DNA of 33,367 nt from Catajapyx aquilonaris. Lineage: Eukaryota. Every line of letters begins with the position of its first letter. Position 1 is the stretch's first letter. Positions 5,147 through 33,264 of the stretch are shown here, piece after piece. The notes under the pieces were generated by a model that made no database searches, was not told where the DNA came from, and saw only the letters and a program-made list of their open reading frames with translations. The DNA lies in contig JYFJ02004284.1 of the NCBI GenBank assembly GCA_000934665.2, positions 1-33,367 on the forward strand. Direction: 5' to 3'. A program made the position numbers and the translations under genes.

Positions 5147-5438
5147 GCACTGAAGCAGTGGTGGCGGAGGGGATATGGTATCCGACTGCTAATCGGGAGG
5201 TCCTGGGTTCGAATCCCGGTGCCGGCAACTCCAACTGTGGTTTTCTGTGGTCTCCCACGGTTCCTCCTGGAGAATTCCGGAGTTGTTTCCTAAACTAATA
5301 GGCCACAGCCGCCTCCTTCCTTTCCTATTCTATCCCAAAAAGCGCAGTAAAAGCGAAACGAAGAGTTCCAGTTAATAATAATAATAAAAAATCCCCCCCT
5401 AAAGAGACGCCGGCTGATAACAGGGTATGAATTATGAT
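5147..5438 (+). mobile_element. tRNA-derived SINE (second family)
   Basis: A-box-like TGGCGGAGGGG, B-box GGTTCGAATCCC, TSD TAAATGG(A/C)GCAGGA at 5133-5146 and 5439-5452. Paralogous introns (~10128, ~19407, ~25198) show the empty site. Confidence 0.85.
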
Positions 5439-12656: not shown

Positions 12657-12917
12657 CTGGAAAGTGAAGTACTATACATCAATTTTGATTTTTCAGCGTG
12701 CATCGTGTGAGGCGCCGGATACCTATGCGATTTTTGCGAATCACATTTAAAGTTTGGGAAAGTCACGGGTGCAGCGTTCTCTTCGCACTGCCGCGCCGAT
12801 GCGGGCATCTCTCTGGAGGTACGGACATGAAATTATCACAGCATGGCGAGGAAGGGCCAATTGAGCCACCTACGGAGCTTCTATCTATTAGAATAATAAT
12901 TGCGAGATCTAAATATA

Positions 12918-13479
12918 CAGGGTGTCTATTGTAACTCTGCAATGACTTTCAGGGGTAATAGAGGGGACCAAGACAAGTATTTTTGACATAGGAACCCATG
13001 TCAGGAAACGCCATCTAGAGGGGGTTCATAGACAAGGAACGGGTGAGCTCAGACGCGTCACGCGGGAGGCGCTAGGGGAGCGGCCTGTTTTGTTGATAGA
13101 TGGCGCTCGGATAGTAACCAACGATGCAATGTGTCATAACCTGACAACAGCAGAGCCATCTAGCAACTAAAGTATGCCTCCTAGGAAACGCGCGGATAGT
13201 CAACAGCGGTTCTGTTGTTGTCAGGTTATGGCTTATCGCGTTGTTGCTTGCGTACAACGACGCGATACGCCATAACCTGGCAACAACTGTGTGCCACCTA
13301 TCAAGAAAACAGTCCGCTCGCCTAGCGCCTCTCGCGTGACGCGTCTGAGCGCACCCGTTCCTTGTCTATGAACCCCCTCTAGATGGCGTTTCCGGACACG
13401 GGTTCCTATGTCAAAAATACTTGTCTTGGTCCCCTCTATTACCCCTGAAAGTCTTTGCAGAGTTACAATAAACACCCCG
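12918..13479. mobile_element. Tc1/mariner-type MITE
   Basis: TA|CAGGGTGTCTATTGTAACTCTGCAA ... TTGCAGAGTTACAATAAACACCCCG|TA, ~155-bp inverted arms, no coding capacity. Confidence 0.88.
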
Positions 13480-13779
13480 TATATGAAACGAGGTGGGTGT
13501 GTGAGGTGGGGTTCGGGGGTCAATGGGTCAAATATTCTGAAAACAACAACAACGACAACATGGCTATGCAGTCTTTTCCTGGGTCAACTCCATCCGCATT
13601 CCTCTTTGTACAGATCCAATCAGCATAATTATCTGCTTGGACTATGCTATAACAGAAGCAGTTAATCTATCACAGATAGTGACAAACTTTGGCTTATTGT
13701 AACGTATAAGGCGTATTTTAAGGTGTATTTGGTTTCAAGTGCATGGAACGCAAATTTTACGAACAAACTTTCTAAAATA

Positions 13780-14679
13780 CAGGGTGTAAATGAATTCAGG
13801 GGACAAACTTGTAGGGGTAATAGAGGGGACCAAGACAAACATATTTGACCTAGGAACCTGTGTCCGGAAACGCCATCTAGAGGGGGTTCATTTGTTCATA
13901 GACAAGGAACGGGTGCGCTCAGACGCGTCAGGTTTGCAGCGTTAGCGAGCGGACCGTTTAGTTGCTGGGTGGCGGGCGGATTGTACACAACTTCGCAATT
14001 TGCCATAACCTGGCAACAACAGAACCACCTAGCAAGAGAAGTCAGCATGCTAGGTAGTGGGCAGATAATAAACAACGGGGGAGGCACAGTGGCCGAGATG
14101 GTAATGTCTCGTCTAGCTATGCGATAGGTCCCGGGTTCAAATCCCCACCTGGGAACAAACCTCACGCTTGCGTCATTGGGTCGTGACCCGCGCCTAAGGA
14201 GGCGTCTTGGCAACCTGACCTCCTGGGGGACTGTACCTGACCCACCGCTGGACAATGCACCTGCACATGTGTCCCCTCCCAAAAATCCCCTACCCTTACC
14301 CAATTTCCTCGTATTCCTTGCACCGGTGATTGAAGTAAATATAAGAGAAAACTGTATGGTGGTCTGCCATCCCCCTAAAGCGGCCTAGGGTTGCATCACG
14401 GGGTAAATAAAATAAAAATAAAATAAAATAATAAACAACAACTCTGTTGTTGCCAGTTTATGGCGAAATACAAAGTTGTGTACAATCCGCCCGCCACCTA
14501 GCAGCTAAACGGTCCGCTCGCTAACGCCGCCAGCCTGACGGGTCTGAGCGCACCCGTTCCTTGTCTATGAACCCCCTCTAGATGGCGTTTCCGGACACGG
14601 TTTCCTATGTCAAATATGTTTGTCTTTGGTGCCCTCTATTACCCCTACAAGTTTGTCGGCTGAATTCATTTACACCCTG
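13780..14679. mobile_element. Related Tc1/mariner-type MITE carrying a nested SINE
   Basis: TA|CAGGGTGTAAATGAATTCAG ... CTGAATTCATTTACACCCTG|TA, long inverted arms, shares its subterminal sequence with the 12918 MITE. Confidence 0.88.
14077..14427 (+). mobile_element. tRNA-derived SINE nested in MITE
   Basis: A-box TGGCCGAGATGG, B-box GGTTCAAATCCC, (TAAAA)n tail, TSD ATAATAAACAAC at 14065-14076 and 14428-14439. Confidence 0.88.
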
Positions 14680-14711
14680 TAGATTACATTGCATTTTCAG
14701 CATATACTTAC

Positions 14712-15074
14712 CGCACTAATGCTTCTGGAACCTACCGCCAAAGGGTCTTCATCATCTTCAACCACCCTCGGCATGGCCACCACCATCTCCTCCTCCTCCT
14801 CCTCCTCCTCCTCTGCTGGAACAATTCCCAATGGGTCATCTTCCTCTTTGTCCCCCCTGGACGTGGTTGCCACCATCTCTTTCTCCCCCTCCTCCTCTGC
14901 TTCCTCCTCTTTGATCTCACGAAGCGTGTCTTCTATGAGAGTAGAGCCACCATCAAGGCAAGAAGGGGTCTCCTCCTTCAACCGCAGCCTCCAAGTCTCC
15001 TCCGTTGTGATCCCAACGTCATCTCCTCCTTCCTCCTGCTCCTCTTCCTTCTTTATCTTCAGGATCAAAGACAT
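14712..15074 (-). CDS. ZF gene D acidic N-terminal coding exon (121 codons, internal duplication)
   Basis: ttttgcag|GATC-ATG; two AEEEE..EMV..DPL modules; donor GCG|gtaagt, phase 0. Confidence 0.85.
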
Positions 15075-16375: not shown

Positions 16376-16484
16376 TTAGGAAAACCCTCGCTATACGCTC
16401 ACATTTTCCTAGGGCGCTGGCCTAGAAAACCACTCGCTTCGCTCGCTCTTTTCAAGGCCTGCGGCCTACAGTGCCCACCATATT
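16376..16484 (-). mobile_element. Second copy of the probable Helitron-type terminus
   Basis: Reverse complement of 9761-9867 with few mismatches. Confidence 0.5.
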
Positions 16485-16770
16485 TGCACATAGAAAAAGT
16501 TGACTGGTAGGCCTATATATTTTTTTCTCTTCCTCAGTGTCGTTGTTTTCATGACACCACAACAAACATCACCAAAGGGTAACTGGGTATTTCAAATTGG
16601 ATTGCCTGGTACTTGGTTTATTTTTCCCAACACGCTCAAAATCGTGGTACAGCTACATCACAGAAAATAAATATTTTTATTTTATATGAGCGAACTTTGG
16701 CATAAAAAAGTAGATTATATTTTGGCGCTTCAGTAAGTTAGTCTTATGCATCGCCACTCTTTAATTGTTT

Positions 16771-17859
16771 CTATCGTGTATGAATTCGCATGTGAGTTTT
16801 CAAATTATATGAATCACGAAATTTTTTCTCGCACACCTCACAAGTAAATGATTTTTCTCCTGTATGAATTCGCATGTGCTTTTTCATCGTGGTTGAATAA
16901 CTAAACTTTTTTTGGCACACCTCACAAGTAAATGGTTTGTCTCCTGTATGAATTCGCATGTGAGTTTTCAAATTATATGAATCACGAAATTTTTTCTCGC
17001 ACACCTCACAAGTAAGTGGTTTTTCTCCTGTATGAATTCGCATGTGCTTTTTCATCGTGGATGAATCACTAAACTTTTTTTGGCACATCTCACAAGTAAA
17101 TGGTTTTTCTCCTGTATGAATTCGCATGTGAATTTTCAAATGACTTGAATGACGGAACTTTTTCTGGCACACCTCACAAGTGAATGGTCTCTCTCCTGCG
17201 TGAATTCGCATGTGGATTTTCAACTGACTTGAATCACGACATTTTTTCTGGCACACATCACAAGTAAATTGTTTTTCTCCAGTGTGAATTCGCATGTGAA
17301 TTTTCAAATGTGATGATTTACGAAATTTTTTCTGGCACATTTCACAAGTGAATGGTTTTTCTCCTGTATGGATTCGCATGTGAATTTTCAAATGACTTGA
17401 AAGACGAAATTTTTTCCGGCACACCTCACAAGTGAATGGTTTGTATCCTGAATGAGTTTGCATGTGAATTTTCAACTTGCATGATTCACGAAAATTTTTC
17501 TTGCACACCTCGCAAGTGAATGCTGGTTTGTCTCCTGAATGAATTCGCATGTGAGATGTCAAATCATGCAGATTTCTAAATTTTTTCTGGCACACCTCAC
17601 AATAAGGGCATGGTTTTTCTCCTGTGTGAATATGCATATGGGTTATCAACCTACGCGAATTAGTAAATTTTTTCTGGCAAAGAGGGCAGCAATTTCTTTC
17701 ACAGCGAGTTCGCATGTGAACCTTCACATCATCCGGGGTACCAAATAATTCCTGGCTCATTCTGCACTCAAATGGATTTCTTCCATCAGTCATTGCCCTG
17801 CTCCATTCATCCTGGATCCCACTCTCTTCAACTCTGCCTGCAGTTCCCACTGGCACAAC
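16771..17859 (-). CDS. ZF gene E terminal exon, 11 intact fingers plus 1 degenerate first finger; no own promoter or start visible
   Basis: Acceptor ttccag|GTT, 363 codons open. The first finger reads CRMS..HMRTR (lost one Cys and one His). Confidence 0.75.
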   Translation of the reverse strand, partial: VVPVGTAGRVEESGIQDEWSRAMTDGRNPFECRMSQELFGTPDDVKVHMRTRCERNCCPLCQKKFTNSRRLITHMHIHTGEKPCPYCEVCQKKFRNLHDLTSHMRIHSGDKPAFTCEVCKKNFRESCKLKIHMQTHSGYKPFTCEVCRKKFRLSSHLKIHMRIHTGEKPFTCEMCQKKFRKSSHLKIHMRIHTGEKQFTCDVCQKKCRDSSQLKIHMRIHAGERPFTCEVCQKKFRHSSHLKIHMRIHTGEKPFTCEMCQKKFSDSSTMKKHMRIHTGEKPLTCEVCEKKFRDSYNLKTHMRIHTGDKPFTCEVCQKKFSYSTTMKKHMRIHTGEKSFTCEVCEKKFRDSYNLKTHMRIHTR

Positions 17860-17879
17860 CTGGAAAGTAAAATACTATA

Positions 17880-18345
17880 CAGTAAAACCACTGTTGTTAG
17901 ACAACCCTCTATGTTGGACATTTTTGGTGGAACCATGGAAAAGCCTAGCAATTTGCATGGGCACATTAGCTCTTAAGTTGGACACCCCTGTATCCTGGAA
18001 GTTGGATGCTTTTTGTCACCCAGCTACGTTGGACAGGAACACAGTGAGTGGGATTAAAAATCACCATTCAGCCTGCTGATATTTGAGGCCATTACTCAGT
18101 GCATGACTCACCACCAAAAGTGATTGACACCATTTATGCAGCCCGAAAATTCATCAAAACTGAAATCATGATGTCTACGCAGGCCAAACTGAAACAGTCC
18201 CGGGTGACTGATTTCTTTTGTAAAAAGTGAGCGTCCATATCGCAGAATCCTGCAACGCTGTCCATCTGTTCCCTACGGATAATACCTATATACTGTACAG
18301 TAGTGTACTGCACACTATATACTCTAAAAGTTTTTATGAAGGTGT
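17880..18345 (+). mobile_element. pogo/Tigger-like MITE, right-truncated
   Basis: TA|CAGTAAAACC left end, GTTGGACA repeats, body matches 11096-11460. Confidence 0.7.
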
Positions 18346-19063
18346 TGTCTTATGAAGAGTTGTCCTAAACTCCTAAAGGAACCAAGTAATGCATATTCAG
18401 TGATCACATGTTCACACTTTTCCCTCTGTATTGTGCTCACCTGTGCGGCCATATGTGCAGACAATGACTGCCTGATTCTTTCTCAGGAGAAAAAGAATAC
18501 ATGGAATAGTTCGTTTCAATCTATCTGCAGCTATTACAATTACGCCAAGAAAACAAGGCTCTGGAAGAAGGGAATTACCCTTCACTGTGAAGCCTTCATT
18601 CACTGTTTACGTAAAGAGAAGAAAAAAAGCTGATGGATGTGGGAAATGACAAATGTGTGGGCCAATATAAAAATGTTAAAAGTCTTAATTCGTTCCAAGA
18701 GACCATTGGAACTCTGAATTGTTCAAAGTCCAAATCAGTTTTCCTCATTATAAATAAATGAAAAGCGAATAAATCCGTTCCCTAACCCTGCATAATACCC
18801 ATTTCGATAAACCTAAACAGCAAATACGCAAAAATTTAAGGTAAAAAACACAATTTAATGCCCTAAATGATAAATTAAGACACGAAAACAATGAAATGTA
18901 TAAATACAACTGTGACAAAAGCACTGAAAACACATGAATGTGATTCAAGAGATGCTTTCACAGTGAGAGTGAGAAACGACTTGGGCGCACAACAGATGGC
19001 ATTTATGCATCAAGTGCATATTTTCCCCTCTGGGCGTAGTTCGAATTTCCTCGTTAGAAGTAC

Positions 19064-19067
<4 letters not shown>

Positions 19068-19101
<34 letters not shown>
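19068..19101. repeat. (CA)n microsatellite
   Basis: Direct reading. Confidence 0.9.
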
Positions 19102-19526
19102 TTCCAGATAAAATTCATCTGGAATTAAGTGTTCAAATTCTGGAATGTAAGAAGTACGAGGTTCCATGGCAATAGAAAAATGGAAATATCATCATCATTC
19201 AGAAGACGAATATTGGTAATGTGTGAAAGTAGCGAGGACCTCCTCGTTATCCGCTGTCACCCCAGTTTTTTGGGAAAAGCCGTGATGAATATGATGATGA
19301 TGATGATGATGAGTCTGAAGAATGTTATGATGATAAAACAGTAGGCGTATTTGACATGAGGATGTTTCAAGAGTTAACATTTACATCACCAAGCTGTCAA
19401 AGAAAAAATGGAACAGGAGTGTGGGTTTTTCCTAAACACATTCCAAGCCTAGGTGTTTGATTTGGAATGACGCTTTTGTGTCAATTTAGTGCAAAAATAT
19501 AATGGCATTTTCGACAGATGGCTTAC

Positions 19527-19583
19527 CCCACCAATCCTTCCAGAACCAACTCCTAAAGGGTCATCTTCATCTTCAACCACACC
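19527..19583 (-). pseudogene. 3' remnant of gene E acidic exon
   Basis: Encodes GVVEDEDDPLGVGSGRIGG with intact donor GGG|gtaagc. Homology stops abruptly at ~19585. Confidence 0.8.
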
Positions 19584-20574
19584 GACCCCCATTACTCCCC
19601 CCATTACTGTACAGTCGGAAGTTTCACTGAAACTACGACATTTGATGCTGCAATGATAGAAAATAATGAATTCTTTGGATTGAGGTCAAAATGTTAAATT
19701 AATGCACCTTTTAACAGATGAATATTATTTTTGAAAAACATCCTTAAATTTCCTATAGCCTCACTGATTCTCACGTTAAGTATCCAACCTCCACGGGTAA
19801 ATTGCATGAAAGTAGTCTGGTAGCCAGTGCTGGAAACCTCCTTCGTGAATTTCCACCACAATTTTTCTATAGCCAGCATGGCCAATTTTTTTGAATGACA
19901 TATTGCTCACATAACATAAAGGATCCATTTTAGGGGCGGAAGCCTAAGAAAGACCATACTGTACCTAAATCTTTTTGTTTGAAATAAAACACTATCAAAA
20001 CACATGAAAACTGCAGTTTTTTTCCCCAAATGCATGGACAGTTTGTACAGTACACAACACTGGCATTTGTAACAGGATGTTCATAGATTATTATCATAAT
20101 TATGATTGGCATTGAATTGTCACAGACCAATTTCAAGTGATGGGATCTTACCTATATCTTTCAACAAGGTTTTTAATTACCTCATCTGGGGAGGTTAATC
20201 GCACCTTGGTTAGCTGAGTCGATGCATGTTGCTGACTGGATATGTCAAAAGATGAATGTTATGCAATATGCCAATTTGGAAGCCAATAAGGTTAGGTATA
20301 TTGTCCAGGCCTTCCCCCCCCCCCCCCTCACTTGCTAATTACTTAGAAGTACCGTGCCTTTACAGTGCAACTAATCTAAATCCGTATGCACTTACCACAC
20401 GTTACCCTACAATCCAACATTGAACTGAGCACGTGTGTGCCTCAACCGTGAGATTGAAAACTTATCTGTAGGAAGCGGAGATAAGTGACAGATGGGAAAA
20501 ATCACCCTTGCGGCATTATGAAGTGACTTCCTGCAGTTGGGAAGGTGATATCTTGTCCATCGCCACTCTTCTAA

Positions 20575-20667
20575 TAGTTTCTCTCACGTATGAATTCGCA
20601 TGTGATATTTCAACCTCGTTGGATCAGAAAGGTTTTTCTGGCACAAATCACAAGTGAATGGTTTCTC
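20575..20667 (-). pseudogene. Eroded finger after gene F stop
   Basis: *EKPFTCDLCQKNLSDPTRLKI then a frameshift to HMRIHT. The same lesions occur at 31777-31864. Confidence 0.8.
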
Positions 20668-21666
20668 CTACTTATGAATGAGCAAGTGCCTCTTCAAAAC
20701 ATATGGTTTACAAAACGCTTTCTGGCACACCTCACAAGTGAATGGTTTTTCTCCTGTATGAATTCGCATGTGAATTTTCAACGTACATGATTTATGAAAT
20801 CTTTTCTCGCACACCTCACAAGTGAATGGTTTTTCTCCTGTATGAATTCGCATGTGAATTTTCAACTTACTTGAATAACGAAACTTTTTCTCGCACACCT
20901 CACAAGTGAATGGTTTTTCTCCTGTATGAATTAGCATGTGAGTTTTCAAATTACTTGACTGGGTGAATTTTTTTTGACACACCTCACAAGTAAATGGTTT
21001 ATCCCCTGTGTGAATTCGCATATGAATTTTCAACTTAGTACTTGTATTACAAAAAAAAATCTGGCACACTTCGCAAGTGAATGGTTTTTCTCCTGTATGA
21101 ATTCGCATGTGAATTTTCAGCTTAGTTGAATTAAGCAACTTTTCCTGGCACACCTCACAAGTGATTGATTTTTCTCCCGTATGAATTCGCATGTGCCTTT
21201 TCAACTTACATGATTTACGGAATTTTTTCTCGCACACTTCACAAGTGAATGGTTTTTCTCCTGTATGAATTCGCATGTGCGTTTTCAAATGACTAAGTTT
21301 TGTAAATGTGTTCTGGCAGACCTCACAACTAAATGGTCTCTCTCCTGTATGAATTCGCATGTGAGTTTTCAAATATCCTGACTCACGAAATGTTTTCTGG
21401 CACACCCCACAGGCAAATGGTTTTTCTCCTGTGTGAATTAGCATATGAGCTTTCAACCCACAAGAATGACTGAACTTTTTCCCGCAAACATGGCAGCAAT
21501 TTTTCTCACTATGAGTAATGACGTGAATATTCAAATCATCCTGGGCACCAAATATTATCTGGCATACTCTGCACTCAAATGGATTTCTTCCATCACATAT
21601 TCCCCTGCTCCTTTTCTCCTGTATCCAATTCTCTGCTACGCCATGCTCAGTTCTCACTTGCACAAC
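20668..21666 (-). CDS. ZF gene F terminal exon, 11 C2H2 fingers
   Basis: Acceptor ttccag|GTT, 333 codons. Finger 7 has one extra residue (FFCNTSTKL). Confidence 0.92.
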   Translation of the reverse strand, partial: VVQVRTEHGVAENWIQEKRSRGICDGRNPFECRVCQIIFGAQDDLNIHVITHSEKNCCHVCGKKFSHSCGLKAHMLIHTGEKPFACGVCQKTFRESGYLKTHMRIHTGERPFSCEVCQNTFTKLSHLKTHMRIHTGEKPFTCEVCEKKFRKSCKLKRHMRIHTGEKSITCEVCQEKLLNSTKLKIHMRIHTGEKPFTCEVCQIFFCNTSTKLKIHMRIHTGDKPFTCEVCQKKFTQSSNLKTHMLIHTGEKPFTCEVCEKKFRYSSKLKIHMRIHTGEKPFTCEVCEKRFHKSCTLKIHMRIHTGEKPFTCEVCQKAFCKPYVLKRHLLIHK

Positions 21667-21763
21667 CTGGAACGTGAATTACAGTTTATCAATTACTATT
21701 ATGCAGTGTTGACAGACTCATGCTTTCCACATGTTTTGTCATTTGAAAGGTATCCCTTATTAT

Positions 21764-24069
21764 CATTTCCTAATTTTTATTTTTATTTTACTTAACCCCT
21801 TGGGAGAAACATCGCTCCTTTAGGGGGGTGGAAAACTACCATTTTCCATCACTATTTTCTCGCATATTTTCTTTGTACACTGTACAATAGGGCGGCTCGA
21901 AAAACACTTTTTTTCGAAAGTTGTAGTTCGCTAGTGAAAAAAAGTTGTGTTGGGCGATCCTTTTAACAGGTAAAAAATCTGAGTCATGTGGGTTAATATC
22001 CTACGGCTCCGCCAGGGGCGTAAGTGACGCAACTTCCGGTTTTTCGTGTTTTGGTGTGCGAGTACACTTACCCGGCCTAAACATGAAAAGTTGTGGCCCT
22101 TTGGGGGTGAAATGTCGTTATCTTTGCGATATCTTGCACCGTTGACGAGATATTGACCAAAGCCCCAGGTTCAAAAATTACACCGTTCTGCAAAAAAACA
22201 CTCTCTTTCGCTCTTTTGAAACCTTTTTTGTGCTTTATATGGATTTTGGGGTGCTGAATCCGAATCCGGCAACAGATTTGCTCTATCACGTACAGTTTGT
22301 GAGATATATCGTTTTAAAACTTTGGACGATTTACTAGGGGTCTTTCCGAATCAAGTGGGCCTAAATGTTGCTAGACCGCCTTGGATCTTGGTGAAAATAA
22401 TCACAGATGTACTAATCTATTCCTTAACGCTTCCTATAAAAATTCAGCCATATTGCTCAATTCTATGATAAGGGGAAAAATCGCAAACATCTGGAAATGG
22501 CTGAGAATGAGGCCCTTTTTGGAGATTTTTTTTTCGGTTAGTGCAAGTGGTCAAACCCCAATGAACATATATATCAAAAGAAAGGGAAACACCAGGGCAA
22601 TGCGCCTATGGAATTAGTATTCCTCTAAAATGTAAAAATAAATTTTTATAGCATTTCATTTGTCACTTGCACAGTCACATGCCCAAGAATATATTGTGAC
22701 CTCAACATGTTCTGCAGAAAAATCCTATTTTGGATAAAAGTAGATGGACTATATTATAGATTAAGGTATGCTGAATCCAGATCTGAAGTCAGAATGGCTC
22801 TATCACGTACATATTTTGAGAAAACGCAAATTGTGGGAGATACGACACTTAAATCAAGAATTGTTGTTTTTCACAGTTGTCGCAGTGTATATCCAGGACT
22901 GCGTAAGGGTTTTCCCCGCAGGACTGCCCGAACCTGTGATATACGTTTTTGTATAAGTGTAAAAGGTACGAGAGGGAGTCGGCCAAGGACAGTCGATTAG
23001 AATTGTTGAGGTCACAATATATTCTTGGGCATGTGACTGAGCAAGTGACAAATGAAATGCTATAGAAATTTATTTTTACATTTTAGAGGAATACTAATTC
23101 CATAGGCGCATTGTCCTGGTGTTTCCCCTTATTTTGATATATATGTTCATTGGGGTTTGACCACTTGCACTAACCGAAAAAAAAATTCTCCAAAAAAGGC
23201 CTCTTAGCCATTTCCAGATGTTTGCGATTTTTTCCCTCATCATAGTATTGAGCAATATGGCTGAATTGTTATAGGAAGCGTTAAGGAATAGATGAGTACA
23301 TCTGTGATTATTTTCACCAAGATCCAAGGCGGTCTAGCAACATTTAGGCCCACTTGATTCGGAAAGACCCCTAGTAAATCGTCCAAAGTTTTAAAACGAT
23401 ATATCTCACAAACTGTACGTGATAGAGCAAATCTGTTGCCGGATTCGGATTCAGCACCCCAAAATCCATATAAAGCACAAAAAGGTTTCAAAAGAGCGAA
23501 AGAGAGTGTTTTTTTGCAGAACGGTGTAATTTTTGAACCTGGGGCTTTGGTCAATATCTCGTCAACGGTGCAAGATATCGCAAAGATAACGACATTTCAC
23601 CCCCAAAGGGCCACAACTTTTCATGTTTAGGCCGGGTAAGTGTACTCGCACACCAAAAAACGAAAAACCGGAAGTTGCGTCACTTACGCCCCTGGCGGAG
23701 CCGTAGGATATTAACCCACATGACTCAGATTTTTTACCTGTTAAAAGGATCGCCCAACACAATTTTTTTTCACTAGCGAACTACAACTTTCGAAAAAAAA
23801 GTGTTTTTCGAGCCGCCCTACAAACTGTACAAGGGAGAAAGGACATAGGGAGGGGAATGAGAATTTTTGGGGAGGAGACAAGGTTGCAAGAGCAATGACG
23901 GAAACTGGGCCATGTGGAATGTCCCAGGAGGTTAGGTTGCCAGATGTCTCCAAGGCACGGGTCAGGGACCCTCCTGACGCAGGTGAAAGGGAACATCTGG
24001 GCAGGACTCTAACCCGGGACATTTCGCCCAGCAAGCCGAGTCGTTACGACTTGGCCACTACACCTCCCT
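21764..24069 (-). mobile_element. tRNA-derived SINE split by a foldback insertion
   Basis: 15-bp TSD GGTATCCCTTATTAT at 21749-21763 and 24070-24084, A-box TGGCCAAGTCG, B-box-like GGTTAGAGTCC. An uninterrupted copy lies at 28609-28951. Confidence 0.8.
21888..23820. mobile_element. Foldback-type non-autonomous DNA transposon with ~820-bp terminal inverted repeats
   Basis: Arms 21888-22707 and 23004-23820 are near-perfect reverse complements around a 296-bp spacer. ACTGTACAA is duplicated at 21879-21887 and 23824-23832. Empty site at ~28720-28735. Confidence 0.9.
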
Positions 24070-24493
24070 GGTATCCCTTATTATAATGGCTGAAGAGGTT
24101 TTCTCACAAACACACAGACTGTACAGTCCCATATTTCTCTCTAGCTACATAAAATGTAACGCTGGAAATAGTAAATTGCTTGTTACGGCCTATTATGTAG
24201 CCACTGCTACATTCCTGATAGTAATGAGACACCTGGATCAGGAACCATCCGGCTAGGGATACACAGAAATAATTCCCATGGACTAAAACCTAAATACTAC
24301 CCATGCACTTGGAACACCATGTATACACATAAATGCTCACCCAGTTCCACCCGTTTCCCGGTCTGTTCCAGCGGGAGCCTGTACATCGGTTCCACGAAGT
24401 TGTTACCCCCTTGACAAGGACCTTGCATTCAGTGATAATGATGAAAACATAAAAATCTAGATCTTTGCACACTTCTGCACATGTACCATTACC

Positions 24494-24899
24494 GACCTCG
24501 TGGAGGTCACTATCACAGGGTTGCCATACTAACAGACTGTGAAACATGAGTTTCTCTTTGAATAATGAGCTTGCATTCGGTGATAAAGACATAAACTTGG
24601 CACCATAGAGGCCTAGATCTTTGGAGCCTTCTAAACACATCTGGATGTGGGACTACAATGACCGACCCTGTTGGAGCTCCCTATTCAAATATAAACACTT
24701 GTTTCCCCGTTTGTTAAATATGGTAACCCTGCAAAAGTGATTTTAAGCAGGGTCTGTGATCGTGGCCCCACGTCCAGATATGTTCAGAACTAGTTTCATG
24801 TCTTTATTGCCGATTTCAAGCTCACTATTCAAATATAAATGCATGTTGCACAGTCTGTTGGATTTGGCAACCCCGTGAGAGTGACCTCCAGCGAGGTCA
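24494..24899. repeat. Degenerate inverted repeat (old MITE/foldback relic)
   Basis: 24494-24598 is the diverged reverse complement of 24792-24898. Related pieces at ~24680-24740 and ~30296-30345. Confidence 0.6.
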
Positions 24900-25306
24900 C
24901 TGTGCCTAATTGTATGTATGTATGTATAATTATTCAGGAGAGTGAATTAAAGTTTGCATTCCCTTAACAAATCATAGGGAACGCGGGTTGTGAACTTGTG
25001 ATCTAGTCCGTGTGGCCGTCTAGTGCATGGTACGTGAACTTGGAGCGTACCAAACTGTTTGTCATGTCTTTTACTTAGTTGCTAGGTGTTTAGGTCAAAA
25101 ATGACAAAAATGAGGGGGTTATCACCTTTTCCCACAACACCCCTCATTTGTCCTGGAATCGCCCACGAGGAACCATTAACATCACCAAGTGGTCGAGTAA
25201 ATTCAACAGGAGTGTGGGAATTTCCAAAACATCATTCCAAGCCTGGGATTGATGATCTGGTGTCACTTCAGTGTAAAATAACATTTCATATTCAGCATAC
25301 ACATAC

Positions 25307-25555
25307 CCCACTAATCCTTCCAGAACCCACTGCCAAAGGGTCTTCTTCATCATTGACCACATCGGATGTGGTCAGCTCCATCTCTTCTTCCTCCTCCTTG
25401 ATCTCGGGGAGAGTGTCTTCTAAGAGCGTAGAGCCAACATCAAAGCAGGAAGGGGTCTCCTCCTTCACCCTTAGCCTCCAACTCTCCTCATCCACTGTGA
25501 TGTCCTCCTCCTCCTTCACTTCCCCTTCCTTCTTTATCGTCAGGATCAAAGACAT
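25307..25555 (-). CDS. ZF gene F acidic N-terminal coding exon (83 codons)
   Basis: tttgcag|GGCC-ATG; MSLILTIKKEGEVKEE..EEDPLAVGSGRISG; donor GGG|gtatgt, phase 0. Confidence 0.85.
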
Positions 25556-25726
25556 GGCCCTGCAAACACAGTGCGGACACTTCTACTATAATCATTACCG
25601 TTGCCGGATAAAAAAGGGAACTCCTCAGTACGGGTGGTTATTCACCTGCTCGAGCTGTTTCGCCTAGGGATGGGCTCAACTCGACGGGGGGACACTCTCT
25701 CTCTGAAGAGAACAAGGCGAGGGAGG

Positions 25727-25897
25727 TCAGGCGGCCATCTTGGATTCCACTCGATTCTTTTTTATGCGAATTAAAGGGTGCGTTCCTGTCACCGCGCCAG
25801 AGAGTGAAAAGGACGGCCTTAAGCGCTATCCCTTCCCTTTCTATACACGCCGCTACTTCTGAATCGCCGCTACTCCTTCCAACGACGCTATTCACAC
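25727..25897 (-). promoter_or_regulatory. Conserved promoter/5'-leader cassette of gene F
   Basis: CAAGATGGCCGCC, ATGCGAAT, GGGTGCGTTCCTGTC, GGACGGCCTTAAGCGCTATC, ACGCTATTCAC. Donor CAG|GTGAAT at 25645. Confidence 0.6.
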
Positions 25898-27009
25898 CAA
25901 TCTGTTGGAAACTTTATAATAATCCCGCCTCATGTGAAAAGGAGATCATTTAACCAACAATGCATCATCCAGGGAGCAAATAAAGATTTATTGAGACAAC
26001 TTGTGAGACGGATTGTATAATCACTATGTTATTACACTGTAAGTATTGTTTTATTATTACATTCTATGAGTACAGTATTTTATAACATGGGTCATGGGTG
26101 GGAGTCTCTGTTCCCAGGGTATGTGCTTGTGCGTGTTCTTCCATATCTTCCCACTCTCAAAATGATTACATTAAAAAATAATTATACTTTCCTAAAACTT
26201 GAAACTAGTGCACACTTCAAGATTGCTTCCTGATAATTGGCAATTATTAGGAGGCGCTCAGAGGATAAACGGGATATCCCAACCAACCTCCGATTTTGAA
26301 ATTGTCCTTCTTTTATACTCTCCTCATGTGCTGAAGTGCCAAAATGAATTGGGATATGCCAAAGCTCACATATTCGATATTCCACTTGTAAAATTGGTCG
26401 GCAATGGAAAATCCTATCCTCTTGCAACACAAAAAGTTGATTATCTCAAAATGAAATCCGGTTGGGATGTGTAGTTTTTCCTCTGAGCGGCTCAATTCCT
26501 ATGGCACCAAAGGATATGCACTCCAAGTTGATCAGAGCGGGGAGGAATGAGTGAAATTACTCTATTCAAGGCAAGATTCTCTAGTGGTGTAATGTGCCAA
26601 TTAATTGGCATGACATGAAGTAGTGACAGTAAGTCAAGCATGGTATTTTTTTTTCCAGCAGCAAAACACCTGAAAATAAGTTTTTATATAATGCATGGAA
26701 AGTTGTACACACAACAATGACATTTGCAACCAGATGCTCATAGATCATCAGGATTATGATAGACATTGAACAAATACAAGTGATGTGATGTTACCTATAG
26801 GCTACATTGCCGTGCTCTTCTCTGTATTTGCATGTATCTTGGCATATTACTTGCCTGATTATACGAGGGTTGTTCCGAAAATAAGTTTCGTAATTTTTAA
26901 TAACAGGAAAATTATTTTATACCTGAAATAGAATGCATTATCTGTGGAATGACACATACCACGTCGACTTTGATACAGCCATCGTGTGACATTTCACATA
27001 TCTGTGCAA

Positions 27010-27256
27010 CGATAAATGGTGTCTCTTCAGTGCGCCGTCACATAAGCACTTTCACAGTAGGCTACTTGTATCACAAAACCATTTTCTTGCATTCAGGGCA
27101 ACTGTATGGTGTTTGATCCGTGTGCATTATGCGACATTTCAACCAATATGCTGCACTGAATTCCTTTTGGCAAATTTCACTGCCAGTAGATACCAGTACC
27201 CGTTCCTTGCATTACATATTATTTAAAGGAGGCACCGGAAAAATTAATTTTTTCTC
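27010..27256 (-). pseudogene. Heavily eroded fingers after gene G stop
   Basis: Minus strand reads EICQKEFSAAYWLKCRIMHTDQTPYSCPECKK. Confidence 0.6.
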
Positions 27257-28504
27257 TCATGTATGAATGCACTTGTGAGAATTCAGAGTACCTATATGAC
27301 GAAATTGTTTCTGGCACACCTGACAAGTAAACGGTTTTTCTCCCGTATGAATTAGCATGTGCCTTTTCAACTTATTTAATTCACTGAATTTTTTCTGGCA
27401 CACATCACAAGTGAATGGTTTGTCTCCTGTATGAATTCGCATGTGAGTTTTCAACTTATTTGATACACTGAATTTTTTCTTGCACACCTCACAAGTAAAG
27501 GGTTTTCCTCCTGTGTGAATAAACATGTGCCTTTTCAAAATATATGGTTTGCAAAACGTTTTCTGGCACACCTCACAAGTGAATTGTTTTTCTCCCGTAT
27601 GAATTAGCATGTGCCCTTTCAAATTATTTGATTCATGGAACTTTTTCTGGCACACATCACAAGTGAATGGTTTTTCTCCTGTATGAACGAGCATGTGAGT
27701 TTTCAACTCACTTGATTCACAGAATTGTTTCTGGCACACATCACAAGTGAATGGGTTGTCTCCTGTATGAAGGAGCATGTGAGTTTTCAAACAATATGAA
27801 TGACTTAATTTTTTCTGACACACTTTACAAGTAAGTGGTTTTTCTCCTGTATGAATTCGCATGTGAGTTTTCAAACAATATGAATCACGAAACCTTTTCT
27901 GGCACACATCACAAGTAAAGGGTTTTTCTCCTGTGTGAATAAACATGTGAGTTTTCAAATCATATGAACCACGAAACTTTTTCTGACACACTTCACAAGT
28001 GAATGGTTTTTCTCCGGTATGAATTCGCATGTGAGTTTTCAAATGAGTTGGATTTGTAAATGTGTTCTGGCACACTTCACAAATATATGGTTTTTCTCCT
28101 GTATGGATATGCATATGAGTTTTCAAATTATATGCGTCACGAAACTTTTTCTGGCAGACCTCACAAGTAAATGGTTTTTCTCCTGTATGGATATGCATAT
28201 GAGTTTTCAAATTATATGCGTCACGAAACTTTTTCTGGCAGACCTCACATGTTAATGGTTTTTCTCCTGTGTGAATTCGCATATGAATTTTGAAGCCAGA
28301 AGAATGACTGAACTTTTTCCCGCAAACATGGCAGCAATTTTTCTCACTATGAGTAATGATGTGAATATTCAAATCATCCTGGGTACCAAATATTATCTGG
28401 CATACTCTGCACTCAAATGGATTTCTTCCATCACATATTCCCCTGCTCCTTTTCTCCTGTATCCAATTCTCTGCTACGCCATGCTCAGTTCTCACTTGCA
28501 CAAC
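27257..28504 (-). CDS. ZF gene G terminal exon, 14 C2H2 fingers; no own promoter or start visible
   Basis: Acceptor ttccag|GTT, 416 codons, all fingers keep their zinc ligands. Confidence 0.82.
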   Translation of the reverse strand, partial: VVQVRTEHGVAENWIQEKRSRGICDGRNPFECRVCQIIFGTQDDLNIHIITHSEKNCCHVCGKKFSHSSGFKIHMRIHTGEKPLTCEVCQKKFRDAYNLKTHMHIHTGEKPFTCEVCQKKFRDAYNLKTHMHIHTGEKPYICEVCQNTFTNPTHLKTHMRIHTGEKPFTCEVCQKKFRGSYDLKTHMFIHTGEKPFTCDVCQKRFRDSYCLKTHMRIHTGEKPLTCKVCQKKLSHSYCLKTHMLLHTGDNPFTCDVCQKQFCESSELKTHMLVHTGEKPFTCDVCQKKFHESNNLKGHMLIHTGEKQFTCEVCQKTFCKPYILKRHMFIHTGGKPFTCEVCKKKFSVSNKLKTHMRIHTGDKPFTCDVCQKKFSELNKLKRHMLIHTGEKPFTCQVCQKQFRHIGTLNSHKCIHT

Positions 28505-28608
28505 CTGGAACGTGAATTACAGTTTATCAATTACTATTATGCAGTGTTGACAGACTCATGCTTTCCACATGTTTTGTCATTCGGAAGGTATCCCTTATGG
28601 GTTATTAT

Positions 28609-28951
28609 CATTTCCATATTTTTATTTTTATTTTACTTAACCCCTTGGGAGAAACATCGCTCCTCTAGCGGGGTGGAAAACCACCATTTTCCATCACTAT
28701 TTTATTCTATATTTTCTTTGTACACTGTACAAGGGAGAAAGGACATAGAAAGGGGAATGAGAATTTTTGGGGAGGAGACAAGGTTGCAAGTGCAATGACG
28801 GAAACTGGGAGGTTAGGTTGCCAGATGCCTCCAAGGAGCGGGTCAGAGACCCTCCTGACGCAGGCGAAAAGGAACTCCCGGGCGGGGCTCTAACCCAGGA
28901 TATTTCGCTCAGCACGCCGAGTTTTTACCGACTTGGCCACTAAGCGTCCCT
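28609..28951 (-). mobile_element. tRNA-derived SINE, same insertion as in gene F intron
   Basis: A-box TGGCCAAGTCGG, B-box-like GGTTAGAGCCC, degenerate TSD at ~28587 and 28952-28966. Confidence 0.8.
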
Positions 28952-30566
28952 GGTGCCCCTTATTATAATGGCTGAAGAGGTTGTCTCACAAACACACGGA
29001 CTGTACAGTCCCATATTTCTATGCAGCTACATAAAATGTAACGCTGGAAATAGTAAATTGCTTGTTACACCCTATTATATAGCCACTGCTACATTCGACG
29101 ACCTGATAGTAATGGGACACCTGGATTGGGAAGCAAACAGCCTACACATAAATAATTCCTTTGGACTAAACACTAAATACTAGCCATGCACTTGGAACAC
29201 CCTGTATACGCACAAATGTTCATTTCATTAAGTCATGTTATATTTCAAACTTAGCAATAAATATGAAACATTCACAATATTTGCTGGATCTCCAATGGCG
29301 ATGTTGTGAGCATATGAAAACATTATCATGGACTCAAACACGTAAATATTTGCATTGATAAAACTGAGAACAAGTTCAGAATGGGCTTTACCATCATCAC
29401 CACCACCACCACCACCACCACCACCCTCCAGCTCCTTGTATGACAGATCAGATACATTCAAAGTTGCACAGATAGGGATATGGAGTCAAAACTGCTAGTT
29501 GTTACTCCAGGTCCCAAAAACATCAATGACTGTCACTGCTGATGTATAACATTTGTATGTGCAGCATTGCTCAGTGATCAGACCAGGGTTAATTGTCTTT
29601 GGGACTCTGGGGGTCTCAACCATAAGTGTGAAAACGATATATTGAGACAACTCCATGGGGGCTTTAATTCCATAGTTTAAATAGTGTTTGTTCCAGGGCT
29701 TGCAGATTGAACACGGTTCTGGGAAAGCAACAGATCAAGGTTTCACTGTACCGTACTTAGAACACTATATCATCAACATCCTGAGTGTATGATGGTGATG
29801 ATGATGAGGAGGAGGAATTGATAATTTCATATAGAAAAGAAGTCTCATTTGACATCATGAGGATGTTTCATGAGGGTGATTCCAGGACAGATCATGCAAA
29901 ATAAAATTCACGGTTCACCCCCTATTTTTTGACCACAATGAAATTTGGCAGAATAATCTCTCAAGATAGTATAAATGTAAAAACTTGTCGGTATGTATAA
30001 TTATATCATTAGTATTAAGCAGAAATGGCGAATAGACCATTTTCCCCCAAAAATGCGAAAATGCGTATCTTATGTTGACATCACCCACCACATGGTTTGG
30101 TGAAATGGCAGATGTGTAGGTGGAACAATGTGCCTGTACGAGAAAGTGCCTGTACGAGACAGTGTAAGGAGAAAGGGAGCATATCCCAGGTGCTAAGGGA
30201 AATTATTAAACGTTGCCTTTGTGATTAAATTTTGAAACTCGGTACTCTTAATCTTTTGACACTTCTGAGCATATTTGGATGTGCGACCACGCGGGGTGAC
30301 CCAGTTGGAGGTCACTTTCACAGGGTTGCCTAATTGAACAGGTGCAGCATACCTTTACATGGAAAAGGTCCAAGGGGGTAACAACTCCCCAAAAAAGTGT
30401 ACACCGTATCTATGAATCCTTTGGTTCCACCCGGTTCCAGGCCAGTTCCAGCGGGACCCTGTACATCGGTTCCACGAAGTTGTTACCCCCTTAATAAGGA
30501 CCTTGCATTCAGTGATAAAAACATGAAACTTTAGTGTAAAATAACATTTCATATTCAGCATCATAC

Positions 30567-30818
30567 CTCACTAATCGTTCCAGAACCAACTGCCAAAGGG
30601 TCATCTTCATCATCATCGACCGCTCTGGATGTGGTCAGCTCCTCCTCCTCCTCCTCCTCCTCCTCTCCTTCCTCCTTCTTGATCTCGAGGAGAGTGTCTT
30701 CCATTAGAGTAGAGCAATCATCAAAGCATGAAGGGGTCTCCTCCTTCAAGGGAATCTGCCACGTCTCTTCTGTTGTGATGTCCTCATCTCCTTCTTCCTC
30801 CTTCTTTATCTTCAGGAT
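30567..30818 (-). pseudogene. Gene G acidic exon lacking its acceptor and start codon (frame still open)
   Basis: ILKIKKEEEGDEDITTEETWQIPLKEE..EDDPLAVGSGTISE, donor GAG|gtatga. The cag|GACCATGTCTTTG start is replaced by a T10 run. Confidence 0.75.
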
Positions 30819-30855
30819 AAAAAAAAAAGTTGCTTATGATAACCATATTCTTCAT

Positions 30856-30905
30856 GGTTTTATGAATTCGCATGTGGGCTTTCAAATCATTGGACTGACG
30901 AATTT
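30856..30905 (-). pseudogene. Isolated half zinc-finger relic
   Basis: Reads IRQSNDLKAHMRIHKT on the minus strand. Confidence 0.65.
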
Positions 30906-30942
30906 AAAATAAATTAAAGTCTCAAGAGGTTGTCTCAGCGAT

Positions 30943-33264
30943 CCCCATTACTGTACAGTCAGAGGTTTCACTGAAACTACATTATTAGATGCTGCAATAA
31001 TAAAAATAATTACCCACGTTGGATTGAGGTCGAAATGTCAAATTAATGCACATTTTAACATATGAATATTAATTTTGAAGACATCCTTAAATTTCCTCGA
31101 GCCTCACTTATTGTCACGTTGAGTATCCAACATCCACGGGCAAATTGCATGCAAGTTGTCTGGTAGCCTCCTTCGTGAATTTCCACCACAATTTTTCTAT
31201 AGCCACGATGGCCAATTTTTTTTTTGACTGACATGTTGCTCACACAAAAGATCCATGTTACGGGCGGTAGCCTCTAAGAAAGACCATACACCGTATACAT
31301 AAAACATTTTGTTTGAAATAAAACACTATCAAAACACATGAAAACTGCAGTTTTTTTCTTCTCCAAATGCATGGACAGTTTGTACAGTACACAACACTGG
31401 CATTTGTAACAGGATGCTCATAGATTATTATCATAATTACGATTGACATTGAATTGCCACAGGCCAATTTCAAGTGATGCGATCTTACCTATATATATAT
31501 TTCAACAAGTTTTTTAAATACCTCATCTGAGGAGGTTAGAAGTACCGTGCCTTTACAGTGCAACTAATCTAAATCCGTATGCACTTACCATACGTTACCC
31601 TACAATCCAACATTGAACTGAGCACGTGTGTGCCTCAACCGTGAGATTGAAAACTTATCTGTAGGAAGCGGAGATAAGTGACAGATGGGAAAAATCACCC
31701 TTGCGGCATTATGAAGTGACTTCCTGCAGGTGGGAAGGTGATCTCTTGTGCATCGCTACTCTACTAATATATTGCTTCTCTCATGTATGAATTCGCATGT
31801 GATATTTCAACCTGGTTGAATCAGAAAGGTTTTTCTGGCACACATCACAAGTGAATGGTTTCTCCTACTTATGAATAAGCATGTGCCTTTTCAAAACATA
31901 TGGTTTACAAAACGCTTTCTGGCACACCTCACAAGCGAAGGGTTTTTCGCCTGTATGAATATGCATGTGAGTTTTCAAATCATATGAACCACGAAACTTT
32001 TTCTGACACACTTCACAAGTAAATGGTTTTTCTCCTGTATGAATTCGCATGTGAGTTTTCAAACGACTTGGATTTGTAAATGTGTTCTGGCACACTTCAC
32101 AAACATATGGTTTTCCTCCTGTATGAATATACATATGAGTTTTCAAATCATATGCAACACAAAAAATTTTCTGGCACACCTGACAAGTAAATGGTTTTTC
32201 TCCTGTATGAATTCGCATATGAGTTTTCAAACAATATGAATCCCGAAACTTTTTCTGACACACATCACAAGTAAATTGTTTTTCTCCTGTATGAATTCGC
32301 ATGTGAATTTTCAACTTACATGATTTACGAAATCTTTTCTGGCACACCTCACAAATAAATGGTTTTTCTCCTGTATGAATTCGCATGTGAATTTTCAACT
32401 TACTTGAATTAAAAAACTTTTTCTGGCACACCTCACACGTGAATGGTTTTTCTCCTGTATGAATTCGCATGTGCTTTTTCAAATGACTTGAATCACTAAA
32501 TTTTTTCTGGCACACCTCACAATTAAATGGTTTTTCTCCTGTATGAATTCGCATGTGAATTTTCAACTTACTTGATTTACAAAAAAATTTCTGGCACACT
32601 TCACAAGTGAATGGTTTTTCTCCTGTATGAATTCGCATGTGAATTTTCAGCTTACTTGAATTAGGCAACTTTTTCTGGCACACCTCACAAGTGAATCGTT
32701 TTTCTGCTGTATGAATTCGCATGTGAATTTTCAACTTACATGATTTACGAAATTTTTTCTGGCACACCTCACAAGTGAATGGTTTTTCTCCTGTATGAAT
32801 TCGCATGTGACTTTTCAAATTTCCAGAACCACGAAATGTTTTCTGGCACACCTCACAGGCAAATGGTTTTTCTCCTGTGTGAATTCGCATATGAATTTTC
32901 AACCCAGACGAATGACTGAACTTTTTCCCGCAAACATGGCAGCAATTTTTCTCACTATGAGTAATGATGTGAATATTCCAATCATCCTGGGTACCAAATA
33001 TTATCTGGCATACTCTGCACTCAAATGGATTTCTTCCATCACATATTCCCCTGTTCCTTTCCTCTTGTATCCAATTCTCTGCTACGCCATGTTCATTTCT
33101 CACTTGCACAACCTGGAACGTGAATTACAGTTTATCAATTACTATTATGCAGTGTGGACAGACTCACGCTTTCCACATGTTTTGTCATTTGGAAGGTATC
33201 CCTTATTATCATTTCCTTATTTTTATTGTTATTTTACTTAACCCATTGGGAGAAACATCGCTCC
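30943..33264. repeat. Segmental duplication of 19599-21820 (3' flank, ZF exon, intron start)
   Basis: Non-coding flanks are colinear and highly similar. The F copy has ~150 extra bp at ~20197-20345. Confidence 0.88.
31865..33112 (-). CDS. ZF gene H terminal exon, 14 C2H2 fingers (5' exons off the right edge)
   Basis: Acceptor ttccag|GTT, 416 codons, close paralog of F and G. Confidence 0.9.
   Translation of the reverse strand, partial: VVQVRNEHGVAENWIQEERNRGICDGRNPFECRVCQIIFGTQDDWNIHIITHSEKNCCHVCGKKFSHSSGLKIHMRIHTGEKPFACEVCQKTFRGSGNLKSHMRIHTGEKPFTCEVCQKKFRKSCKLKIHMRIHTAEKRFTCEVCQKKLPNSSKLKIHMRIHTGEKPFTCEVCQKFFCKSSKLKIHMRIHTGEKPFNCEVCQKKFSDSSHLKKHMRIHTGEKPFTCEVCQKKFFNSSKLKIHMRIHTGEKPFICEVCQKRFRKSCKLKIHMRIHTGEKQFTCDVCQKKFRDSYCLKTHMRIHTGEKPFTCQVCQKIFCVAYDLKTHMYIHTGGKPYVCEVCQNTFTNPSRLKTHMRIHTGEKPFTCEVCQKKFRGSYDLKTHMHIHTGEKPFACEVCQKAFCKPYVLKRHMLIHK

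Follow-up and report, generated by a model that had tools for sequence, protein, structure and literature searches.

In the genes broad and fruitless, one N-terminal module is joined to alternative finger exons, and the common exons of lola and mod(mdg4) encode a BTB domain. For lola and mod(mdg4), the available part of PMC6237743 describes variable exons that have their own promoters and are trans-spliced. A different route to a chimeric product is read-through between adjacent genes, known as cis-SAGe or TIC (available parts of PMC13501980 and PMC6862657), and in the model outlined in the former the terminal acceptor is skipped and the first acceptor of the next gene is used instead. Tandem zinc-finger paralogs built from an N-terminal-module exon and a single finger-array exon are described for FiNZ-ZNF genes (PMC10547256, available part), and truncated and orphan pieces lie among the tandem paralogs of KRAB-ZNF clusters (PMC2865497, available part); the portion of PMC5363842 that could be consulted contributes nothing further on splicing. 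In the literature covered, with most subscription papers outside it, no report was found of a promoter-deleted zinc-finger paralog serving as an alternative last exon.

The window, that is the whole 33,367-nucleotide stretch of DNA analysed here, is an entire contig (G000:C2330) of a 286-Mb animal assembly and contains a tandem row of eight C2H2 zinc-finger units, named A to H, every one on the minus strand. A complete unit runs from a G+C-rich promoter cassette through a short non-coding first exon and an acidic coding exon to a single finger-array exon, with exon structures throughout read from the sequence alone. For the acidic exon at least 151 genomic matches were counted (with 150 out of 427 candidates scored); it matched no Pfam family, KRAB and BTB included, and a weak search of protein databases found no relative for it, while a protein search with the first 115 residues of E returned generic finger proteins only. 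The exon break falls on a codon boundary (phase 0) in C, D, E, F and G, and likewise in E', a relative of E on contig C5387. The frame match between the F donor and the E acceptor is thus family-wide and inherited, so that it gives no sign of design and is necessary for a join but not telling.

Among 112 promoter cassettes, AAGATGGC was present in 104 and AGATGGC(C/G)G in 101, a motif that in our view resembles a YY1 site; TATCGATA occurred in none of the 112 and TATAAA in two. A subfamily on C2987, C2127, C2972, C5067 and C8422 had no cassette match, and its acidic-to-finger introns were mostly very short (tens of bases). Elsewhere in the window, the D acidic exon (14712-15070) contains an internal repeat of its own 3' end, and short interspersed repeats, tRNA-derived by eye, lie at 5150-5280, 14079-14285, 23865-24068 and 28800-28950, with a similar tRNA-like repeat inserted in the E' intron. 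Palindromic or inverted-repeat elements occupy 12913-13484, 13778-14681 and 24494-24898 in the D and F introns, the one at 12913-13484 having a 96% copy on C5387. The features of the F and E region are as follows, in the order of transcription.

25724..25888, minus strand: F promoter cassette (profile match), the candidate driver of read-through
25645..25723, minus strand: predicted 3' part of the non-coding first exon of F, with its donor GT starting at 25645
25307..25559, minus strand: F acidic coding exon; ATG at 25555, 83 codons, phase-0 donor GT at 25306
20668..21666, minus strand: F zinc-finger exon; 332 codons and stop
19584..20667, minus strand: F 3' flank, with no promoter cassette
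19647..19667, minus strand: acceptor-like site whose first exon base would be 19647, in the wrong frame for the F acidic donor
19587..19608, minus strand: duplication with a 12-bp period, CCCCATTACT occurring twice (19587 and 19599) and carrying ATGs at 19604 and 19592
19580..19583, no strand assigned: CACC, a 4-bp microhomology at the deletion junction, the same CACC standing at both ends
19527..19583, minus strand: E acidic-exon remnant; 57 bp, 19 codons
at 19526, minus strand: retained E donor, with the sequence GTAAGC
17860..19526, minus strand: E intron; 96% identity with that of E' (1621 bases aligned)
16771..17859, minus strand: E zinc-finger exon; phase-0 acceptor, 1089 nt made up of 362 sense codons and a stop (16773-16771)
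16676..16681, minus strand: AATAAA for E, 90 nt past its stop, with a second at 16622

Sequence inspection bore out the description of E in an earlier note on this DNA, namely that the 57-bp remnant abuts the F 3' flank at the tandem duplication with copies at 19587 and 19599, and that the finger exon (362 sense codons plus stop) is open with a phase-0 acceptor fitting the F donor at 25306. To this description our analysis adds the 716-bp deletion detailed below, the donor that E has retained and two ATGs at the junction, which would offer a third expression route. The E exon encodes one degenerate finger followed by 11 canonical C2H2 fingers, has neither stop nor frameshift, and keeps the zinc ligands in all 11 fingers after the first. 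The first finger, which the note had called degenerate, lacks its second Cys and last His, but as a sign of pseudogene status this is weak since a non-canonical first finger was also found in 16 of 82 promoter-bearing genes (scored by the distance to the first canonical finger, and including E'). The acceptors of E and F are of nearly the same strength, with 11 and 10 pyrimidines out of 15 positions, respectively, and a median of 11 among 86, and donors of the GTAAGC type were found in five of the scored promoter-bearing genes. The last four fingers of E (16780-17115) represent a 168-bp duplication, 162 of 168 positions being alike; all six differences are replacements, two of which fall in a recognition helix. 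E also carries an additional codon in one finger linker that is absent from E'.

The ATGs at 19604 and 19592 are in frame with the remnant, resulting in a possible 388-residue frame without the F coding exon, and the acceptor-like site at 19647 could serve a non-coding first exon. This site is inherited, as it is also found in the flanks of E' and H. Both it and the ATGs are flank sequence of older origin, and their functional fit may be due to chance.

How E lost its head could be read from E', because a search of the assembly showed that on C5387 the two sides of a query spanning the junction stand apart with extra DNA between them. There the gene has kept its promoter cassette, first exon and start codon as well as an acidic exon complete at 97 codons, and relative to E' the E locus lacks 716 bp (C5387:6491-7206) comprising the promoter, first exon, start codon and most of the acidic exon. 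The 12-bp duplication sits a few bases from the CACC on the flank side, and this combination of short homology and a small local duplication is what we take to be a pattern of end-joining repair. Of 2267 non-coding sites, 91 (4%) distinguish E from E', as do 18 small indels, 16 of them with lengths not divisible by three. In the assembly the deletion is real; the junction was found there in one copy only, and E lost its head after its split from E'. The neighbours of E' differ from those of E on both sides and no F copy above 92–95% turned up in the assembly, which favours a paralog over an allele for E'. E' (C5387:9379-10113) has kept its promoter, but an in-frame deletion has taken away its first two fingers. 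The sequencing runs listed for 16700-21750 were four DNA-type runs of a single sample and one run of unknown kind. Among the joints listed for three of the DNA runs and the unknown one over 16400-31200, all of them contigs, none connects 25307 with 17859 or with 21666, a result that has no bearing on expression. A joint between 19578 and 25378 in the DNA runs was set aside, one of its sides being only 20 letters long and fitting the acidic exon of a paralog.

Rates taken from the comparison of E with E' gave the probability that E would have stayed open by chance under neutrality, which was 0.006 had the loss occurred at the base of the branch, 0.09 for half the branch, 0.31 for a quarter and 0.63 for a tenth, or about 0.20 with the loss date drawn evenly along the branch. 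The open frame is therefore a mild surprise if E has been dead since its loss, and these values indicate that E is either in use or lost its head recently. Codon counts were mixed and fail to separate E from neutrality. The pN/pS value between E and E' was 0.28 over fingers 3–5, where the branch of E has three silent changes and two to three replacements, while the differences in the linkers and the remnant were almost all replacements.

The interval between F and E was searched for promoter and termination signals. As the earlier note had claimed, no promoter cassette stands there: no profile match was obtained, none of six core or cassette motifs occurs on the minus strand from 17860 to 20667 (an unrelated promoter type would go undetected by these motifs), and the G+C content of the F flank is 36–45% in comparison to 49–54% at three intact promoters. 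The region of the F cassette itself (25640-25900) has a G+C content of 54% and a CpG observed/expected ratio of 1.0. In the 1084 nt from the F stop to the junction there is no AATAAA, and ATTAAA occurs once, at 20177. Exon 2 of F and the E finger exon are open in one frame of 445 residues; the F-to-E intron would measure 7447 nt in comparison to 6880 nt for the longest of 72 scored family introns. An inverted repeat in the second intron of F (21888-23820; arms of 822 bp, 97% alike) has very deep coverage in DNA runs and is therefore probably a non-autonomous DNA transposon present in many copies. In F (20590-20668) and H (31787-31865) the stop has the same position and is followed by a single relic finger; their 3' ends are 95% alike.

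Our survey of arrays without promoters covered 39 contigs or stretches (742 kb) picked by matches to the acidic exon; five contigs without any promoter match, two fragments and 32 arrays with their upstream DNA cut off were left out. Among arrays with three or more intact fingers, the only ones detected, 14 of 89 had no cassette separating them from the array before, a count to which promoters missed by the profile may contribute. Acceptor calling succeeded in 11 of the 14 promoterless and 70 of the 75 promoter-bearing arrays, and 10/11 and 66/70 of these, respectively, were open; the three unscorable promoterless arrays include two that resemble fragments and one that is atypical. Five of the 81 scorable arrays were broken and orphan pieces are also present in the family. 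Fast deletion of dead copies, if it happens, would inflate the open fraction. Open exons are almost as frequent among arrays without a promoter as among those with one, which lends indirect support to E as an alternative last exon of F. An AATAAA within 300 nt upstream was found for 1 of 11 promoterless arrays versus 20 of 64 others, a difference that was not significant (p = 0.17) and was weaker at 600 and 1000 nt.

C1547:38241-38420 is built like E, with the 3' part of an acidic exon and its donor joined to the upstream flank, the join presenting a phase-0 CAG after a T-run. On C4388 (1600-12500) a single promoter precedes a complete gene and then two promoterless heads, the first with an acceptor and an ATG and the second with neither. 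The relatives of three promoterless arrays, a 94–99% copy for C6818, relatives of only 86% for C170 and, for C1547, none that is close apart from its flank, yielded no firm date for the losses.

Within the window, gene G has lost its promoter in parallel with E.

30567..30828, minus strand: G acidic exon without ATG, first exon or promoter, joined to the H flank at an A-run (30819-30828)
27257..28504, minus strand: G zinc-finger exon with 14 fingers; open over 415 codons

A separate deletion, about 370 bp in size and against a flank of similar kind, removed the head of G, whose promoter loss is independent of that of E. The G junction leaves a T10 run five bases ahead of a phase-0 AAG, which could act as a weak acceptor, and no AATAAA occurs in the H flank ahead of the junction; the donor of H falls outside the contig. 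The junction is shared by G' on C12863, and the two differ at 2% of non-coding sites (26 of 1321), which sets a minimum age for the loss. The probability that G stayed open since then without selection was 0.02 with all indels counted, 0.23 with single-base ones removed and 0.58 with all indels removed. A pN/pS value of 0.33 for the G and G' remnants was dropped, as their glutamate-rich part aligns ambiguously.

Our preferred reading, which we hold tentatively, is that read-through from F may splice the F acidic exon onto the E finger exon in cis. Transcripts from the F promoter would sometimes fail to end behind F and run on into E; the F acidic donor at 25306 would then skip the F finger exon and pair with the E acceptor at 17859, the first intact coding acceptor downstream, and the transcript would end at E's own AATAAA. 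The predicted product of 445 residues would combine the F head with the E fingers, and selection on it would keep the E exon open. This order of events is made more plausible by E having kept its acceptor, open exon and AATAAA, and by the lack of an AATAAA in the F flank. In the other direction, the donor that E retains, 1.67 kb from its acceptor, would compete with that of F and leave E within the F 3' UTR, and the F-to-E intron is longer than any scored in the family. Of the earlier proposal that E is an alternative last exon of F, the in-frame join thus stands as feasible and agrees with the 10 of 11 open promoterless arrays and with G, open since a loss of known minimum age, while its actual use is a matter of cautious preference. 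Almost equally probable is the reading that E is a young pseudogene, silenced by a deletion too recent for a stop or frameshift to have arisen, with any read-through placing E in the untranslated tail of F. The disabling lesion relative to intact E' is the 716-bp loss itself, which may be arbitrarily recent (0.31 for the last quarter and 0.63 for the last tenth of the branch, as above); the single junction copy, the retained donor, the replacements at all six differences of the internal duplication and the extra linker codon all agree with this, as do the broken and orphan pieces in the family, comparable to those in human KRAB-ZF clusters (PMC2865497, available part). However, the zinc ligands are intact in all 11 fingers after the first, promoterless arrays are mostly open, and G is open after a loss that can be dated.

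E might also be expressed from a new short head, in which the F first exon or a cryptic start in the flank is joined to the acceptor-like site at 19647, translation begins at one of the two ATGs (19604 or 19592) and the E intron is spliced as before, giving 388 residues with most of the acidic domain missing. The two ATGs are in frame, each having a purine at −3 and a G at +4, remnant and donor are undamaged, and the 19647 site equals the true E acceptor in pyrimidines; this route is nevertheless improbable, as the ATG and the site are inherited from the flank (shared with H and E'), one frame in three fits by chance, a short upstream frame begins at 19641 and no promoter motif was found. Trans-splicing, in which the E exon is transcribed separately and joined to acidic exons of other members in the manner of lola and mod(mdg4), would be served by any head of the family since the inspected donors are all phase 0, but we regard it as very improbable: no promoter was found upstream of the acceptor, the E acceptor is paired with its own donor, and the model in the available part of PMC6237743 needs separately transcribed exons with unpaired acceptors. 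Equally remote is the explanation that misassembly produced the junction and that E is intact. None of the read contigs listed over 16400-31200 bridges 19585, yet the 4-bp overlap together with a new 12-bp duplication does not correspond to repeat collapse, both sides are 4–6% from E', and the analogous junction of G stands on two contigs.

If E is used by way of F, its finger exon would act as an alternative last exon, and promoter deletion in a finger cluster would mean more than gene death, as several arrays would come under one promoter and head. If E is dead, the case is ordinary cluster birth and death with a neatly documented deletion. Either way, intact and deleted copies 2–4% apart are found within one genome. 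A wider interpretation, which we consider doubtful, is that repeated deletion of downstream promoters is converting tandem genes of this family, each with a single product, into genes that share a promoter and have several finger-array endings, a state that 14 of the 89 surveyed arrays would have reached already. E and G could then be seen, again with more doubt than confidence, as two independent and datable steps of that change, a route to lola-like genes.

In comparison to the known systems, the layout of an effector exon plus a single finger-array exon in tandem paralogs is shared with KRAB- and FiNZ-ZNF genes (for FiNZ the layout only), while the acidic exon differs from the KRAB-ZNF type in having no KRAB match. 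The likeness to lola and mod(mdg4) drawn earlier is partial: one N-terminal module could join more than one DNA-binding last exon here as well, whereas the F head has no BTB or other Pfam family, one extra exon only is involved, and E has no promoter that could be found and has its own donor at 19526, making its acceptor a paired one. Any use of the E exon is, judged by these features, not lola-type trans-splicing. The putative F-E join is closer to cis-SAGe, in which the upstream gene's penultimate exon is joined to the downstream gene's first usable acceptor when termination has failed. It differs in that E has lost its promoter, so that read-through would be its only route, and in that F and E are tandem paralogs, whose fusion would yield a normal-looking protein of the family.
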